From positions 1 through 41,460 of the forward strand of contig JBDRFV010000019.1 of assembly GCA_043818335.1 (NCBI GenBank): a DNA stretch of 41,460 nt, in the 5' to 3' direction. Made by a program: the position numbers and the translations under genes. This DNA is from Patescibacteria group bacterium (lineage in GTDB: Bacteria > Patescibacteriota > Minisyncoccia > Phycocordibacterales > UBA9973). The notes below the pieces were generated by a model. It saw nothing but the letters and a program-made list of their open reading frames with translations. It was not told the origin of the DNA and did not search any database. Below, piece by piece: positions 1 to 8,648 of the stretch; within the stretch, counting starts at the first letter, position 1, and each line of letters starts with the position of its first letter.

Positions 1-1527
1 ATGAAATTAACAAAAACTGATTATTTAATATATAAAGACTGTGCTAAAAATGCTTGGTTGAAAATTCACAAGAAAGATATTTATTACGAAAAGCAGTTGT
101 CCGTTTTTGATCAAACCATAATAGAAACTGGAAATGAAGTAGATAAATTAGCACGGGATTTGTTTCCTAATGGAATTGAGGTAGAAGATAGAAATGATTT
201 TTCTGGTACGATGAAGTTGGTTGAAGCTAAAACACCTGTGATTTATCAGCCTGTTTTTGAGACTGATTTGTATAAAATTGTTTGTGATATTTTGGTTTGG
301 AACGAAAAGCAAGAAGTGTATGATTTATATGAAGTAAAAGCTTCTAATAGTGGTGAAAATAAAAAAGCAAAAGATGAATTATATAGTTATGATATAGCTT
401 TTCAGTATTTAGTTATGAAAGAATTAAACATGCCAATTGGTAGATTGAATTTAATTAGATTTAATAATGAATATATTAGAGGGGCTGAATTAGATTTAGA
501 AGAATTATTTATAAAAGAAGATTTTACGGAAAGAGTTTTTGAAATAAGAGATATCGTTGCTCACGAAATGGAAATTGCTCAGGATTTTTTATCTCAAGAA
601 AAAGAGCCATTTGGAAATTGTAAATGCATAACTCGTGGTAGAAGTTCGCATTGTACGACTTTTTCTTATTCAAATCCAAACGTGCCAGATTACAGTGTTC
701 ATGATATTTCACGAATTGGCATGTCTAAGAAAAAATTAGCAGAATTAATAGACAGCAGTATTTTTTTGATAGAAGACGTGCCAGAAGATTTTAAATTAAG
801 CGAAAAACAGAGAAATCAAGTTGAAGCTGTGCAATTAGATAAAGTTTATATAAATAAAGAAGAAATAAGAGAATTTATGAAAAATATAACTTTTCCAATT
901 TCTTTTTTAGATTATGAGACTTTTGCTGCTGGTGTGCCTAGGTTTGCTGGTTTTAGTCCTTTTAATCAAATAACTTTTCAGTTTTCTTTGCACATTTCTG
1001 AAGCCTCGCACGTGGCCGGACTACGGCCGAGGGATGAAAAAACAGAGCCAAGGCATGAAGAATTTATTTATACAGAAGATAAAAATCCAGATGAGCAGTT
1101 TGTTTTAGCTTTGAAAGAAAAATTACCAAATAGTGGAACCGTTATTGTTTGGAATAAAAGTTTTGAAATTGGTAGAAATAAAGATTTGGCAAAAAGAAAT
1201 CCTGAGTATAAAGATTTTCTTGATTCAATAAATACAAGAGTTATAGATCTAATGGATGTTTTTTCTGAACAGCATTATATTCACTCAAAATTTAAAGGAA
1301 AGACTTCTATAAAATATATTTTGCCGGTTCTTGCACCTGAATTGTCTTACAAAGTTTTAGATATTCAAGAAGGCGCGACTGCTTCGGATACTTGGAATAA
1401 AATTGTAAGTGATGAGTTTGATGAAAAAGAAAAGAAAGAAAAAATAGAAAGTTTGAAAACTTACTGCAAATTAGATACTTATGCAATGTATGCGATTTGG
1501 AAGCATTTAATTGATTTATTGGAATAA
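1..1527 (+). CDS. DUF2779-family protein (PD-(D/E)XK-like N-terminal module plus RNase H/exonuclease-like C-terminal module)
   Basis: 508-aa ORF. It has an N-terminal D...E-x-K-like block (CDILVW...YDLYEVKAS), a Cys cluster (CKCITRGRSSHC), then FLDYETF...PFNQITFQFSLH. This matches DUF2779 as I recall it; not searched. Confidence 0.7.
   Translation: MKLTKTDYLIYKDCAKNAWLKIHKKDIYYEKQLSVFDQTIIETGNEVDKLARDLFPNGIEVEDRNDFSGTMKLVEAKTPVIYQPVFETDLYKIVCDILVWNEKQEVYDLYEVKASNSGENKKAKDELYSYDIAFQYLVMKELNMPIGRLNLIRFNNEYIRGAELDLEELFIKEDFTERVFEIRDIVAHEMEIAQDFLSQEKEPFGNCKCITRGRSSHCTTFSYSNPNVPDYSVHDISRIGMSKKKLAELIDSSIFLIEDVPEDFKLSEKQRNQVEAVQLDKVYINKEEIREFMKNITFPISFLDYETFAAGVPRFAGFSPFNQITFQFSLHISEASHVAGLRPRDEKTEPRHEEFIYTEDKNPDEQFVLALKEKLPNSGTVIVWNKSFEIGRNKDLAKRNPEYKDFLDSINTRVIDLMDVFSEQHYIHSKFKGKTSIKYILPVLAPELSYKVLDIQEGATASDTWNKIVSDEFDEKEKKEKIESLKTYCKLDTYAMYAIWKHLIDLLE
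1003..1033. repeat. GC-rich hairpin element inserted in frame in the DUF2779 gene
   Basis: The sequence is GCCTCGCACGTGGCCGGACTACGGCCGAGGG. It contains CCTCG/CGAGG and GGCCG/CGGCC stems and is far more GC-rich than its flanks. It encodes ..EASHVAGLRPRD.. and shares CCTCG and CTACGG blocks with the elements at 21750 and 23020. Confidence 0.6.
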
Positions 1528-1577
1528 AAAAAGGGCTTATTCTATTACGAATAAAACCCTTTGCACCTTTATGGTGC
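1526..1577. terminator. Hairpin pair; intrinsic terminator whose U-tract lies on the minus strand
   Basis: An imperfect stem AAGGGCTTATTC / GAATAAAACCCTT spans 1531-1561. It is preceded on the + strand by A7 (1526-1532), which reads as U7 after the hairpin on the minus strand. A second hairpin GCACC-TTTAT-GGTGC lies at 1563-1577. Confidence 0.5.
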
Positions 1578-1639
1578 CAGTTAACTTTTCTGAACAATAA
1601 TTTTTTGTGTTTGCCGATTAGCGTTGCAATTTTTTCCCA

Positions 1640-1897
1640 AGAGTATTCCAGCTTTTAAATATCTTTAGCTGTTTTCCACTAGGTACTCTGATGCTTCATT
1701 TCCCTAAGTTTCCCTCCTTATCTAATAAGGATGACCGATCTCATTGGTCAGGTTGCCCCATTCGGAAATCTTCGGATCATAAGCTATTAGCGCCTTCCCG
1801 AAGCTTATCGCAGCTGGTCACGTCCTTCATCGTTGCTCTTAGAATCACAAATAATTATCTTTCAGATAATACTTCAAAGAACGAATATAGTTTAACT
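1640..1897 (-). rRNA. 23S rRNA 5'-domain fragment (truncated or interrupted); boundaries approximate
   Basis: The minus strand reads ..CGATGAAGGACGTGACCAGCTGCGATAAGCTTCGGG..TGATCCGAAGATTTCCGAATGGGGCAACC..GGGAAATGAAGCATCAGAGTACC... This matches, from memory, conserved bacterial 23S blocks (E. coli about 45-215: CGATGAAGGACGTGC, GATTTCCGAATGGGGAAACC, GGGAACTGAAACATCTAAGTACC). Similarity fades below about 1660, and the region abuts a protein gene instead of the remaining 2.6 kb of 23S. Confidence 0.6.
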
Positions 1898-2069
1898 ACA
1901 AGTTTATATTAGAAAATTTCAGGCCCATTGTCTAGCCAGCCCAAATAAATGCCGACAAATAAAAACACAGCAGTTATAATTATTAGAAATATAATAGTTT
2001 TTCGCATGTGTATATTATACTCTTTTTGTGATATATTTTAAGTATTAGAATTTAATTTAAATAAAATAT

Positions 2070-2300
2070 ATGGAAAAGAAAATAATACGTAATATTGAGT
2101 TTCATTTTGATAGTAGCACTGATGATGCTAGAAGATGGTTAGAATATGGATTAACGAGTGAGGGTTTTGAAAAACTTTTTAGTAATGTAAAAAAAGGACA
2201 AAAAAATCTGTTTACAGATGGGTATTTTAAAAAATATGATCTGGAGTCTGACAGTGAGGATGAAAGTAAAAAAACTTATAGTGTAAAAAGACATTATTAA
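2070..2300 (+). CDS. hypothetical small protein
   Basis: 76-aa ORF with an acidic C-terminal half. It overlaps the pheS 3' end by 4 nt, tail to tail. No family recognised. Confidence 0.35.
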   Translation: MEKKIIRNIEFHFDSSTDDARRWLEYGLTSEGFEKLFSNVKKGQKNLFTDGYFKKYDLESDSEDESKKTYSVKRHY

Positions 2301-3439
2301 CGAATTTCTGCGTTGAAAGATTTTTTTGTTGCTTCTTCTATTTTTTTATGAAGTTCGTCTATTTCTGTTGAAATTAAAGTTCTATCTAAAGATCTATATG
2401 TAATTCTAAAAGCATAACTTATTTTGTCTACTCCAAATTTTTCCGCATTTTCATATTTATCTAAAAGTTCTACTTGTTCAACTAAATCTGGTGCGTTTTC
2501 TCTAACTAAATCAAAATAATCATTTAGTATAAAAGTTTTTGGAACAACAAAAGAAATATCACGCACTATAGCTGGATACTTACTGACTTCTATAAATTTA
2601 TTTCCGAGCTTTAATTGTTTTTTTACACGTTCGTCATTGGACCAAAGTAATCTAATATCTGGTAGTTCCATAGAAACCATGGCCAATCTTTCAATACCAG
2701 GTCCAAAAGCCCAACCATTCCATTTTTTTGAATTAATACCAAATTTTTCCAATACACTTCCTTTTACAACACCACTACCTAAAACTTCCAGCCATTTTCC
2801 GTTTTTTTCAATTTCCATTTGAAGAGACGGATCGGTGTATGGGAAAGTATCATCAAAAATTTTAATATTAGCACTAGAACCGAAAACTGCTTTTGCTATA
2901 TTTCGTAATTCAGCATCTAGTTCTTCTTTGCCGATTATTTTTTTATCTTTTAGCGCTAAATACCAACCATCAATTTGATGAAAAACATTCATGTGATTTC
3001 TATCAATTTCATCTTTTCGATAAACTTTTCCATATGAAAAACAACCAACTGGTTCTCCACGAGCCATTCGAGCTTTTACATCTTCCTGTTGCAAATAGTA
3101 ATACCACATGACGGTGGTGTGTGTTCGGAGAATATGATTTTCGTCAACATAATAAGTATCAGATTTTGAGCGGGCTGGATGATCTGCAGGAAAATCAAAT
3201 AAATCAAAACTTATATCTGCTGGTACTATTTCCGGCACTTCAATAATATCTAAATCCTTAAATTCTGGTAAATTAGTAACTCTTTCAACAACTTCAGCAA
3301 TTGGACTACCGATAGTGCGAGATAAATCAGGCATAGCTAAATAACGTTTTATTCGCATTGAATCCACATCGTTTCTGGATTCTAAATTTTTTATTATTTT
3401 TTCGTTTTCTGGAAGAGTCACTTTGTAATTTTTCCGCAT
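2297..3439 (-). CDS. pheS: phenylalanine--tRNA ligase, alpha-type catalytic core fused to a C-terminal FDX-ACB anticodon-binding domain (monomeric, mitochondrial-like architecture)
   Basis: PheS class II motifs are present: FPADHPARSKSDTYYV, RTHTT, GWAFGPGIERLAM. The N-terminal coiled coil is missing. The last 95 aa or so (SKYPAIVRDISFVVP...LLDKYE...ISYAFRITYRSLDRTLISTEIDELHKKI...AEIR) fit the FDX-ACB pattern. Confidence 0.9.
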   Translation of the reverse strand: MRKNYKVTLPENEKIIKNLESRNDVDSMRIKRYLAMPDLSRTIGSPIAEVVERVTNLPEFKDLDIIEVPEIVPADISFDLFDFPADHPARSKSDTYYVDENHILRTHTTVMWYYYLQQEDVKARMARGEPVGCFSYGKVYRKDEIDRNHMNVFHQIDGWYLALKDKKIIGKEELDAELRNIAKAVFGSSANIKIFDDTFPYTDPSLQMEIEKNGKWLEVLGSGVVKGSVLEKFGINSKKWNGWAFGPGIERLAMVSMELPDIRLLWSNDERVKKQLKLGNKFIEVSKYPAIVRDISFVVPKTFILNDYFDLVRENAPDLVEQVELLDKYENAEKFGVDKISYAFRITYRSLDRTLISTEIDELHKKIEEATKKSFNAEIR

Positions 3440-3579: not shown

Positions 3580-5769
<2,190 letters not shown>

Positions 5770-5771
5770 AA

Positions 5772-7664
5772 TTATTTTTTCTCTTCAATTTCTTTTTTTA
5801 GTTTTTCTATAAAATCTTTAATAGAAATATTTTCTAATTTTTCCCCGCCTGCATCAGCTGTGTTGAAAGCATTGCGGGCAGGAGTTCTAGTTTCTACTGT
5901 TAGTTTTTCAGATTCTTTTTCTTTATCACCAATTACTATTACATACGGAATTTTTTGCATTTTTGCAGTACGAATTTTTTTACCCAAAGATTCATTTGAA
6001 GAATCTAATTCTACTCTAATATTTTCATTTTTTAATTCTTTATAAATTTTTTCTGCATAATCAGTTTGTTTTTCACTTATTGGAAGAATTACAACTTGCA
6101 CAGGTGATAACCAAAGAGGGAAGGCGCCAGCATAATGCTCTATCAAAACTCCCATAAATCTTTCAAACGAACCAAGAATTGCAACATGGAGCACAACTAC
6201 GCGATGTTTTTTGCCGTCTTCGCCTGTATAGTCCATATTAAAATTTTCTGGCTGGTTGAAATCAAGTTGGATTGTAGTTAGTTGCCATTCTCTGCCGATA
6301 GAATCTCTGACTTTTATATCAATCTTTGGTCCATAAAAAGCAGCTTCGCCTTCTTTAATTTCAAAAGGTACACCCCATTTTTTTACTGATTCTTCCAAGA
6401 TAGCTTCAGCTTTTTCCCAAATTTCATCTTTTCCAAAATACGCTTTTTTATTTTTTTTATCTCTAACAGAAATTTCTACTTTATAATTATTGAAACCAAA
6501 AATTTCATAGGTTTCGCGCATTAGACCAAAAATCATTTCAATTTCTGATTCAATTTGGTCTTCAGTAACAAAATGGTGAGTATCATCTTGAGTTATATTT
6601 TTAACACGCAATAATCCAGACAATTCTCCACTTTTTTCATTTCTGTATACAGTTGTATTTTCAGCTATTCTATATGGAAGATCTTTGTAACTATGAAGCT
6701 CAGAATTATAAATTTCAAAATGATGCGGACAGTTCATTGCTTTCATTACAAATTCATCACCGTTTTCATCTTTCATAACTGGCATCATGGCGTCATATTT
6801 TCCCATGTGACCACTTTTTATATAAAGTTCTTTTTTTGCAATATGTGGAATTGTTACAAAAGAATATCCTAGCGCTTCTTTTCTTGAGTAAATAAATCTT
6901 TCTAGCTCGTTTTTTATTATATTTCCTTTTGGTAAAAGCATTGGCAGACCTTTTCCTACTAATTCAGAAATTGTGAATAATTTTAATTCTTTTCCCAATT
7001 TTTTATGATCTCGTTTTTCTGCTTCTTCGCGCATTTTTTCATAATCTTCTAATTCTTTTTTATTTTCAAAAGCTAAACCGTAAATTCTAGTTAGCATTTT
7101 ATTTTTTTCATCTCCACGCCAATATGCACCAGCAACTCTATCTAATTTAAAACTGTCTGGATTTATCTCTTTTGTAGGATTTTCAGAATGTCCACCTCGA
7201 CATAAATCAGTAAACCCCGCCTTTGACGGGGCAAGCTCTCCAAAAGTGTATAAAGTAATTTTTTCCCTAAACGCTTCTTTAGAAGCGTCGGGCGATCCAG
7301 CTTTGCTGGATTTAGCCTCTTTATCTTTTATCTCTTTTATTAATTCTGTTTTGTATTCATTATCAGCGAAATATTTTAGCGCTTCTTTTTGTGTTTTTTC
7401 TGAGACTTTAAAACTTTTCCAGCTTTTCAAAATTTCTCGCATTTTCTTTTCAATTTTTGGCAGATCTTTATCAGAAATAGGGGATTTAAAATCAAAATCA
7501 TAATAAAAGCCATTTTCAATAACTGGGCCGATAGTGACTTTAGTTTCTGGATATAAATTTATTACGGCAGTTGCTAAAAGATGCGCAAGTGTGTGTCTAA
7601 TATTGTGTAGTTTTTCATTTGTTTCCATAAGTTTAATAATATCATATTCTTTTGCTTTTTTCAT
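5772..7664 (-). CDS. thrS: threonine--tRNA ligase (no N-terminal TGS domain)
   Basis: It has the editing-domain HxxxH (HNIRHTLAHLLA), GPVIENGFYYDF, DLCRGGH, a class II core and an anticodon-binding C-terminus (PLWLSPVQVVILPIS). The protein starts directly at the editing domain. Confidence 0.95.
   Translation of the reverse strand: MKKAKEYDIIKLMETNEKLHNIRHTLAHLLATAVINLYPETKVTIGPVIENGFYYDFDFKSPISDKDLPKIEKKMREILKSWKSFKVSEKTQKEALKYFADNEYKTELIKEIKDKEAKSSKAGSPDASKEAFREKITLYTFGELAPSKAGFTDLCRGGHSENPTKEINPDSFKLDRVAGAYWRGDEKNKMLTRIYGLAFENKKELEDYEKMREEAEKRDHKKLGKELKLFTISELVGKGLPMLLPKGNIIKNELERFIYSRKEALGYSFVTIPHIAKKELYIKSGHMGKYDAMMPVMKDENGDEFVMKAMNCPHHFEIYNSELHSYKDLPYRIAENTTVYRNEKSGELSGLLRVKNITQDDTHHFVTEDQIESEIEMIFGLMRETYEIFGFNNYKVEISVRDKKNKKAYFGKDEIWEKAEAILEESVKKWGVPFEIKEGEAAFYGPKIDIKVRDSIGREWQLTTIQLDFNQPENFNMDYTGEDGKKHRVVVLHVAILGSFERFMGVLIEHYAGAFPLWLSPVQVVILPISEKQTDYAEKIYKELKNENIRVELDSSNESLGKKIRTAKMQKIPYVIVIGDKEKESEKLTVETRTPARNAFNTADAGGEKLENISIKDFIEKLKKEIEEKK
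7215..7236. repeat. GC-rich hairpin element in frame in thrS
   Basis: CCCCGCCTTTGACGGGGCAAGC has a CCCCG/CGGGG stem. On the minus strand it encodes the extra ..ELAPSKAG.. just before the conserved FTDLCRGGH. It shares GGGCAAGC with the elements at 22650 and 23020. Confidence 0.6.
7271..7311. repeat. Second GC-rich double-hairpin element in frame in thrS
   Basis: Two perfect 7-bp stems, ACGCTTC-TTTA-GAAGCGT and ATCCAGC-TTTG-CTGGAT, are joined by CGGGCG. It encodes ..SSKAGSPDASKEAF... Confidence 0.55.
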
Positions 7665-7724: not shown

Positions 7725-8648
7725 ATGGAAAAGAATAAAGGATTTATAGGAATTGGTTTGATAATAGCGATAATCGTTGGTGTTTTGGTAGTCGGTGGTG
7801 GAGCGTATTATATTGGAACAAAAAATGATATTGTTCCTGAAAATATAAATATGGAAGAAAATAATCTTCCGCAAGATAATGTTGTAGATAAAAACACTAT
7901 AACTAACCAACAGACAAAAGACGAACAAGCATCTGTTCCAGAAAAAACAACAGGTCCTAGTTCACCTTGCGCTTCAACAGCTCAACCTTCAATTACGATT
8001 CTTTCTCCAAATGGAGGAGAAACTTATACAGCTGGTCAACAAATTACAATAAAGTGGACAAGTTGCAATCTTCCTTCCACAACACCAGTTGATATTTTAT
8101 TACAGGCTCAATTTTCTTCAGGACCATGGTTCGGCCCTTCTGGTTTGGCAACTTATGGATTACAGTCAACTCATACATTAAATTCTGGATCAACAACAAT
8201 TACTCTTCCAATACAAGGTTCTGGGCAATGGTATGGAAGTGCTACGGATATGACTTATGGCACATATTATAAAATATGGATTTCAGAAGGTACTATAATA
8301 CAAGGTCCTGGTATTAGCGATGTTTCTGATAATTTATTTACAATTCAAACACAAAAAAATCCAATTCTTACTCAAACTCAAGCAGAAAATCTTGTTCTAT
8401 TAAATTGGGGTGGTTGCACCCTAGATACTTGTGGGTCCGTTGTTGTAACAGTTCAACAAAATACTGAAGGACAATATGTTGTGACTGCAATTTACAAAGA
8501 ACTTCGAGATGATTCTATAGGATCACAAAAAAAAGAAGCAATTGTTTTATATCAAAATGGAGTTTGGGTGCTTGGACAACCAACTTTAACATGGGCATGT
8601 CAGTTAAATCGCGGGCATCAAGATTTTAGTACAGTTTTTTGTATTTAA
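7725..8648 (+). CDS. membrane-anchored or secreted surface protein with an SPNGGE...IxW Ig-like module
   Basis: 307 aa with an N-terminal hydrophobic anchor. The conserved block TGPSSPCASTAQPSITILSPNGGETYTAGQQITIKWTSCN is shared with the next gene. Confidence 0.7.
   Translation: MEKNKGFIGIGLIIAIIVGVLVVGGGAYYIGTKNDIVPENINMEENNLPQDNVVDKNTITNQQTKDEQASVPEKTTGPSSPCASTAQPSITILSPNGGETYTAGQQITIKWTSCNLPSTTPVDILLQAQFSSGPWFGPSGLATYGLQSTHTLNSGSTTITLPIQGSGQWYGSATDMTYGTYYKIWISEGTIIQGPGISDVSDNLFTIQTQKNPILTQTQAENLVLLNWGGCTLDTCGSVVVTVQQNTEGQYVVTAIYKELRDDSIGSQKKEAIVLYQNGVWVLGQPTLTWACQLNRGHQDFSTVFCI

Follow-up and report, generated by a model that had tools for sequence, protein, structure and literature searches.

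A 23S rRNA domain I-like insertion between two convergent genes of a Patescibacteria genome: probably an orphan pseudogene fragment

How does a conserved piece of 23S ribosomal RNA (rRNA) come to lie between two protein genes, and can it still belong to a working ribosome? The question is raised by contig JBDRFV010000019.1 of a Patescibacteria group bacterium (assembly GCA_043818335.1), the entire length of which, 41,460 nucleotides (nt), was analysed and is referred to below as the window. An earlier note, prepared from the bare sequence, had drawn attention to 23S domain I sequence on the minus strand next to a gene of the DUF2779 family and had left three options: a decaying remnant, a 23S gene interrupted by a large insertion, and a terminated, 5.8S-like 5' piece of a fragmented 23S. 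The analysis presented here favours the first of these. The rRNA-like sequence lies within a 381-nt insertion (positions 1528-1908, minus strand; hereafter the insert), which is probably an orphan 23S pseudogene fragment, i.e. neither an exon nor a separately encoded piece of a working 23S.

The 23S domain I-like core of the insert occupies positions 1660-1842 of the minus strand and corresponds to E. coli ~36-232, with all predicted helices intact (cmscan, nhmmer). When positions 1000-2600 were scanned with cmscan in evalue mode, model positions 46-232 of the Rfam family RF02541 (LSU_rRNA_bacteria, large-subunit (LSU) rRNA) matched positions 1660-1833 with 111 bits (E = 9.6e-34). The gathering score of this family is 50 and its model is 2925 positions long, only 46-232 being covered here; merely four non-canonical base pairs were flagged in the match. 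An nhmmer profile of five real 23S rRNAs from different phyla (Salmonella, Methylomagnum, Priestia, Ilyobacter and Prevotella) likewise matched positions 1842-1670 (E = 6.4e-31). These matches are far beyond chance, and the core is homologous to 23S rRNA. Hence the conserved domain I sequence described in the earlier note is real, and the covariance-model check which that note had named in advance returned a significant match. The 111-bit LSU match was, by the way, absent from the scan of the whole 41-kb window in both gathering and evalue mode and was reported only when the 1.6-kb stretch was scanned, because of a filter effect; short rRNA fragments can slip past routine annotation.

Conservation is unevenly distributed along the core. 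Counted over the columns that do not vary among the five reference 23S rRNAs, region 46-135 has a single mismatch in 44 columns, region 181-215 (the helix-11 block) four in 26 and region 216-245 nine in 18. The homology is thus clear from E. coli ~36 and fades 3' of ~222, in line with the degeneration that had been described for this side, and the CYGAATGGGGVAACC block of 23S is intact. The extreme 5' end had also been called poorly recognisable, and rightly so: neither comparison with real 23S rRNAs nor nhmmer recognised 23S ~1-35, including the 5' block GGTGGATGCC, in the insert. The residual 23S homology of the head of the insert (1843-1909) is not significant, as 76 of 300 shuffles score equally. 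The core has a G+C content of 45%, against 37% for the insert and 30.6% for the contig. The antisense open reading frame (ORF) at 1691-1912, with a 90-aa translation, has no Pfam match and no homologues.

The search for the remaining 23S, proposed in the same note, was run on the whole contig. The profile of full-length 23S gave one 171-nt match in the 41-kb window, namely the core, and neither this profile nor cmscan detected any other 23S or LSU sequence in it; the other structural RNA of the window is one tRNA-Thr, with no other rRNA. No further 23S was found with the full-length profile in the 17 related loci described below either (181.5 kb including the window). A functional LSU gene in the window is ruled out, with one 171-nt match against the six domains (~2.9 kb) of such a gene.

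The boundaries of the insert become apparent from the comparison with relatives. Related loci were fetched by means of six homologues of phenylalanyl-tRNA synthetase (PheRS) and three of DUF2779, giving 17 loci of seven distinct relatives (L001-L007 and L020-L029). Three relatives (L001, L023-25 and L027-29) keep the order DUF2779 / mini-ORF / (small ORF) / PheRS, and in each of them the DUF2779 and mini-ORF stop codons lie end to end or overlap, without any sequence in between. In the window, 381 extra bases are found exactly between the stop codon of DUF2779 (1525-1527, plus strand) and that of the mini-ORF (1911-1909, minus strand), both reading frames being intact. The relatives are close: PheRS and DUF2779 of L001 are 87% and 76% identical to the window proteins, and DUF2779 of L023-25 and L027-29 is 86% and 83% identical, respectively. 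Only these three share the DUF2779/mini-ORF junction, the other fetched relatives having a UvrD/PDDEXK gene there, and a blastn search with the insert found the 23S-like core in none of the 17 loci. Positions 1528-1908 are, consequently, an insertion confined to the lineage of the window among the relatives fetched.

No other copies or repeats of the insert occur within the window, and neither terminal inverted repeats nor a target-site duplication were found at its ends beyond trivial AT-rich matches. A blastn search against phage and plasmid records yielded no donor, only ordinary 23S genes with 75-83% identity, and exact-protein look-ups returned no identical protein on record for DUF2779 or PheRS of the window.

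The internal structure of the insert suggests that the homology does not simply end where it fades. The 5' strand of the helix that closes the 23S subdomain, UUCUAAGAG (1836-1844, minus strand), is homologous to E. coli ~38-46, the nhmmer alignment extending to CTAAGAG, and in the minimum free energy (MFE) fold it pairs with positions 1635-1643. About 15 nt past the end of the core homology begins the motif AAAGCUGGAAUACUC, which resembles the universal AAGGCUAAAUACUC block (~412-425); the universal 23S block at which homology resumes after the gap reads AAAUACUC. The motif is directly followed by CUCUUGGGA, a strand that pairs with UUCUAAGAG, the 5' border of the core, along 9 bp, so that the block and the 3' strand together (1635-1655, minus strand) correspond to 23S ~412-436 in the comparison with the five real 23S rRNAs. 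In these the closing helix covaries (CAGUCAGAG/CUCCUGACUG, CGAUGAGAG/CUCAUCG, UAACAAGAG/CUCUUGUUA etc.). The motif AAUACU followed by at least 7 bp of complementarity to the 5' strand arose in 219 of 200,000 dinucleotide shuffles of the tail, and a p of ~0.01-0.03 was obtained from the scores of colinear alignments. Because both the AAUACUC block and the complementary closing strand appear to be retained, the insert is likely, though not proven, to be an internally deleted domain I, in which ~36-222 is joined to ~412-436 and ~223-414 has been lost. The last part of the tail, AGUUAACUGGCACCAUAAAGGUGCAAAGGG, aligns ambiguously to the purine-rich 23S regions ~340-375, ~445-470 and ~590-625, and no mapping of it was used.

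Outside the closing helix, the MFE fold contains an AT-rich outer stem, formed by the 5' strand UCUGAAAGAUAAUUAUUUGUG (1846-1866, minus strand) and the 3' strand CACAAAAAAUUAUUGUUCAGA (1589-1609, minus strand). The head-tail duplex, comprising the inner closing helix and the outer stem, has a free energy of -26.2 kcal/mol vs -18.5 +/- 3.4 in shuffles, a value that 16 of 1000 shuffles reached, as did 12 of 403 genomic controls. Support for the predicted outer stem is accordingly moderate and only suggestive; the whole-element fold has a z of -2.7.

The 3' end of the insert is taken up by an intrinsic-terminator-like structure at 1526-1562 (minus strand). RNAfold predicts a hairpin at 1530-1562 with 13 bp (three of them G-C), one bulge and the loop GUAAUA, followed by a U7 run (1526-1532) that overlaps the last three stem pairs and the last bases of which overlap the DUF2779 stop codon. 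The hairpin and U7 before the convergent gene had already been seen in the earlier note. An ungapped consensus terminator scan did not list this hairpin, because of the bulge; the predicted fold nevertheless has the features of an intrinsic terminator, a G+C-containing hairpin and a U-tract.

The gene upstream of the insert on the same strand is the mini-ORF (1909-2007, minus strand), which encodes the 32-aa hydrophobic membrane peptide MRKTIIFLIIITAVFLFVGIYLGWLDNGPEIF and has the insert in its 3' untranslated region (UTR). Since the translated peptide is shared by four genomes, in all of which the motif YLGWLDN is unchanged, its sequence marks the mini-ORF as a real small gene. A TATAAT box (2014-2019), part of a promoter-like TTAAAA-16-TATAAT arrangement that is conserved in L001 and L023, lies only 7 nt before the ATG, and the mRNA is therefore predicted to be leaderless, probably at least. 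The mini-ORF is missing from the gene calls of the collection in L001, L023 and L027.

Taken together, a decaying remnant fits these data best: the rRNA homology is truncated, sites invariant in 23S are changed and the presence is lineage-specific. DNA copied from domain I, in the 5' portion of a 23S gene, would have been inserted between two convergent genes in this Paceibacteria lineage only; its source may be the rRNA gene of the organism itself, foreign DNA, or DNA or cDNA picked up at a break. The loss of ~223-414 and of the extreme 5' end, together with partial decay, would have followed. The signs of truncation and decay are the missing 5' 35 nt, the mismatches at invariant columns in the helix-11 block (4/26) and in the adjoining region (9/18) and the probable internal deletion. 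Having landed between convergent genes with formerly overlapping stop codons, the insert now most probably forms the transcribed 3' UTR of the mini-ORF; its last 37 nt may end the transcript before it runs antisense into DUF2779. This predicted hairpin and U-tract, for which the ancestral arrangement has no counterpart, would be the sole role that can be assigned to the insert. It presumably cannot serve as rRNA, because the 5' end, the greater part of domain I and every other domain are missing. Nor does it look like a member of a conserved family, given that the syntenic relatives are without it and that the scans of the JGI metagenomes and GTDB genomes gave no other copy of the 20-mer discussed below in an rRNA context. 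The earlier interpretation therefore stands in its first option, although the insertion status, the position in the mini-ORF 3' UTR and the internal deletion had gone unnoticed in it.

The part of the core that fits this history least comfortably is the helix-11-type hairpin, the core of which is the variant 20-mer GAAAUGAAGCAUCAGAGUAC (1683-1702, minus strand) with four differences from the Rfam consensus GAAcUGaAACAuCUaAGUAc. Four mismatches are also counted in the helix-11 block GAASTGAAACATCTHAGTA, the primer consensus for this block, which is the reference of that count; the variant may be native to the lineage. On our reading of the hairpin, the change of U to A converts a U-U opposition into a U-A pair and lengthens the inner stem, as is visible in the predicted folds, the changes of C to A and of A to G concern two bases that face each other, and the tetraloop AACA becomes AGCA. 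The four differences thus look coordinated and structurally coherent.

The exact 20-mer was found in no real 23S and in no second orphan fragment of the JGI metagenomes, GTDB genomes and IMG/VR. It does occur in nine loci within tRNA arrays, where an RNase P-like RNA of ~250 nt is encoded; three of these loci come from viral contigs of IMG/VR and six from JGI metagenome contigs that are presumed to be phage (gene at L008 6156-6371 with the hairpin at 6213-6242; also L009, L011-L013 and L015-L018). The CR-I, CR-IV and CR-V signatures of the C-domain are present in these RNAs, matches to RNaseP_arch are weak (29-32 bits) and the S (specificity) domain is reduced to ~70 nt. According to our own reading of the sequences, the hairpin sits between CR-II-like and CR-III-like segments and would thus occupy the position of P12. 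Its stem covaries between phage groups (UAGG/CCUA vs GUUGA/CAAC). Outside the ~30-nt hairpin, the window element and the phage RNase P-like RNA are not significantly similar.

Other exact matches were set aside. Those in L010/L014, L019 and L051/L065 are chance or coding matches, their number being about as expected; L019, in which the 20-mer is inside a coding sequence and is attributed to chance, is the single exact match among the GTDB genomes. In L010 (2158-2177) and L014 (596-615) the 20-mer lies in a GC-rich contig just 3' of an apparent Y1 (REP-associated) transposase ORF; this occurrence was judged to be chance as well, with ~1-2 expected per 20-mer in a collection of this size. A degenerate scan of viral sequences for more helix-11 variants gave only coding coincidences, e.g. 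the peptide NEASEY. The universal 23S block GATTTCCGAATGGGGNAACC had no match in the viral scan (IMG/VR), and no element like the insert is present in IMG/VR.

The canonical form of helix 11 is also found outside rRNA. The 19-mer GAACUGAAACAUCUAAGUA occurs as an isolated hairpin with differing complementary, i.e. covarying, stems on viral contigs that are without 23S (L044 5363-5381; L040 190-208; L035 9433-9451; L036 12036-12054; L037 2791-2809; L038 9027-9045; L042 1319-1337; L047 4399-4417). In L044 it is located inside a phage transfer-messenger RNA (tmRNA; 5073-5482, with 74 bits in Rfam and the tag AREKKKITGTSPY* according to ARAGORN), where it comes immediately behind the tag's stop codon, and the hairpin of L040 is probably placed likewise. 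The hairpin of L047 lies between tRNA genes of a 364-kb phage, and tRNA genes are also near that of L035. The tRNA array of L047 includes a tRNA with anticodon CUA (8144-8218; an amber suppressor, labelled tRNA-Pyl by ARAGORN), which is compatible with stop-codon recoding in that phage.

Judging from these sequences, helix-11-type hairpins are modules reused in phage RNAs, of which no description was found in the literature on phage-encoded RNase P RNA. Most simply, the phage modules would be copies of helix 11 as found in their hosts, and a narrow host lineage, to which this organism belongs, would have the variant as its native form. If so, the four mismatches of the window would not be decay, and the fragment would be a fairly faithful copy of the organism's own 23S. 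The window carries the only rRNA-context copy found of the variant that one phage group uses. A native variant could serve as a host marker for those phages and would point to a helix-11-binding partner that they exploit.

Several points weigh against an orphan pseudogene fragment and must be borne in mind. Region 46-135 is near-perfect (1/44) and all core helices are intact in a genome of 31% G+C, which may reflect selection, a fairly recent origin or gene conversion by the functional 23S. The earlier note had taken the high conservation as an argument against an old pseudogene; the conservation is real, but it is compatible with a remnant as well, since a lineage-specific insertion could be fairly recent. 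Furthermore, the core is closed by a retained native helix and an outer stem into a tidy, self-contained fold, and the helix-11 changes (U-U to U-A pair, C/A to A/G, tetraloop) look non-random. Simple decay is no explanation for a 20-mer that agrees letter for letter with a hairpin strictly conserved among phage RNase P-like RNAs.

The same points are the strength of the alternative that survives best, even if it must still be considered rather unlikely: that selection maintains the insert as a self-contained mini domain I RNA or 3'-UTR element, which mimics rRNA, for instance as a sponge or decoy. Such a mimic would bind the partners of the real rRNA, be it early-binding ribosomal proteins or a factor that recognises helix 11, and may be of phage or mobile-element origin. 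It would account for the intact helices and the near-perfect 46-135 in an AT-rich genome, for the native closing helix with an additional ~20-bp stem, for a predicted terminator of its own and for a coherent helix-11 variant shared with the P12 hairpin of the phage RNAs. The recurrence of canonical helix-11 hairpins in phage tmRNA and other phage RNA-gene regions leads us to infer that the hairpin has a function outside the ribosome. Assembly of the 50S subunit is nucleated by domain I together with uL22, uL24 and uL29, and H11 and H37 touch each other across domains (PMC9935924); the fold of the element would mimic this nucleating part of 23S or present the helix-11 hairpin.

However, the element is a singleton, absent from the syntenic relatives and without a second copy of the 20-mer in an rRNA context in JGI, GTDB or IMG/VR, and as a single sequence it cannot be backed by covariation. 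The outer stem has a p of only ~0.02-0.03, promoter-like sites are no commoner than in shuffles, so that no convincing promoter of its own is present, and no ribosomal or RNA-metabolism gene to be regulated lies adjacent. The likeness to phage RNAs ends, moreover, at the ~30-nt hairpin. Literature searches on rRNA decoys and rRNA pseudogenes gave nothing directly relevant. In its most specific form, a working mini-23S domain I (closing helix, helices ~5-11 and terminator) made as a 3'-UTR-derived RNA and sharing with the phage P12 hairpin one partner, a host factor or RNA receptor that normally recognises helix 11, the proposal appears distinctly improbable; a selected or imported rRNA mimic with a ligand in common with phage RNAs is likewise given low odds. 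If true, the insert would be an rRNA decoy or sponge, involved for instance in controlling ribosome assembly or in phage-host conflict, and may have been moved horizontally.

Far less can be said for a separately encoded, terminated 5.8S-like 5' piece of a fragmented 23S that assembles in trans, which was the third option of the earlier note and is now very improbable. The insert is a discrete unit with a predicted terminator, its well-conserved core is a compact subdomain, and split or scrambled rRNA genes are known in organelles, e.g. in Chlamydomonas mitochondria (PMC8660880). Yet 23S ~1-35 is missing, including the helix strands that tie the 5' end to the rest of 23S, and the apparent presence of the 3' strand ~418-436 points to a domain I with an internal deletion, not to a cleanly cut piece. 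The near-universal helix-11 block carries four mismatches. The piece is also absent at the syntenic locus of three relatives with 76-87% identical flanking proteins, and an essential part of rRNA would therefore need to be elsewhere in those genomes.

An assembly chimera, in which rRNA reads of another organism were joined in, is if anything harder to credit. The feature is located 1.5 kb from the contig end, rRNA regions are commonly misassembled and the core differs in G+C content from the contig (45% vs 31%). Two false joins would, however, be needed, leading back to directly neighbouring positions of one genome, and what was inserted does not qualify as bona fide rRNA, being truncated, internally deleted and accompanied by AT-rich non-rRNA parts. 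No real 23S with this helix-11 sequence occurs in the JGI metagenomes or GTDB genomes. A first exon of a 23S gene that a very large insertion has interrupted, for which the abrupt stop of the 23S homology and the established occurrence of insertions in rRNA genes of the candidate phyla radiation (CPR) could be adduced, is already contradicted, since the sequences flanking the 381-nt segment are neighbours by ancestry, in direct contact in three relatives, a predicted terminator follows that runs into the convergent stop codon, a conserved protein gene rather than a downstream exon lies beyond, the relatives have no rRNA past DUF2779, and the 23S 5' end is missing too.

The neighbourhood of the insert deserves a few remarks of its own. 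By the naming of their nearest homologues, the flanking proteins assign the contig to Paceibacteria (Patescibacteria/CPR). The convergent DUF2779 / RNase H-like gene (1-1527, plus strand; Pfam PF11074, E = 2e-36) has an intact C-terminus and stop codon, and its homologues in the relatives are 76-86% identical. Beyond it, the relatives have SnoaL-like, TerC and DsbA genes (L023, L027) or AAA-ATPase genes (L001). PheRS of the window (2297-3439, minus strand) consists of one 380-aa chain, in which a class II core is combined with an FDX-ACB anticodon-binding domain, the architecture of the monomeric mitochondrial enzyme; close homologues number thousands in Paceibacteria. At the corresponding place L026 (8354-10889) has separate alpha-like and beta-like PheRS genes. 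The neighbour of PheRS differs as well, being a UvrD-PDDEXK helicase-nuclease in L002, L004, L005, L021 and L022 and DUF2779 in the window, L001, L023 and L027, and the identity ranks of PheRS and DUF2779 disagree between relatives (87% and 76% in L001; in L023 DUF2779, the only one measured, 86%). Both observations suggest a rearrangement or recombination hot spot downstream of PheRS.

If the insert is indeed an orphan pseudogene fragment, short rRNA-like pieces can occur in otherwise streamlined CPR genomes, and such pieces are no evidence for split or intron-containing rRNA genes. The locus would also provide a dated example of DNA gain between tightly packed convergent genes, in which the gained DNA supplies a new predicted terminator.

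How, then, does the insert compare with known systems? Regulatory RNAs that mimic rRNA include ribosomal-protein leaders and the 23S-methyl motif (RF01065); these are short structural look-alikes, placed 5' of the regulated gene and conserved across species. The insert resembles them in being a non-ribosomal RNA that is similar to a piece of rRNA and that could bind an rRNA-binding protein. It differs in its ~185 nt of true homology, in its location 3' of a membrane mini-ORF and in being a singleton with no adjacent ribosomal-protein gene, and the wrong position together with the singleton status rules out a mimic of the ribosomal-protein-leader type.

Fragmentation of 23S by intervening sequences (IVS) is known from helix 25 and helix 45 of Salmonella, and a 5.8S-like 5' fragment from Rhizobiales. 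There, too, the 5' domain of 23S is involved and a small 5' RNA results, but this RNA is cut from one contiguous gene after transcription, whereas the window has neither a downstream 23S nor a true 5' end. Brown et al. reportedly described insertions and introns in the rRNA genes of CPR bacteria in 2015 (Nature), in the same group of organisms and with conserved rRNA blocks interrupted as well. In those cases rRNA exons are found on both sides, whereas in the window the rRNA-like piece is itself the insertion between protein genes. With the helix-11 modules of phage RNase P-like RNA and tmRNA the insert shares the hairpin, its helix 11 being the same 20-mer as the phage P12 hairpin; in the phage RNAs, however, only the hairpin is rRNA-like, while that of the window stands in its native 23S context.

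The closest counterparts are orphan rRNA fragments of bacteria, with which the insert has in common a truncated 23S outside an operon, changes at invariant sites and a patchy, lineage-specific presence. It stands apart from them in several respects: ~185 nt of clear homology with an apparent internal deletion that keeps the closing helix, a position in the 3' UTR of a small gene for which it supplies the predicted terminator, a coherent helix-11 variant that is common to phage RNAs, and a host with a very small, streamlined CPR genome in which junk DNA is rare. These peculiarities notwithstanding, the element has its place among orphan rRNA pseudogene fragments and is most probably an ordinary, if unusually tidy, relic.

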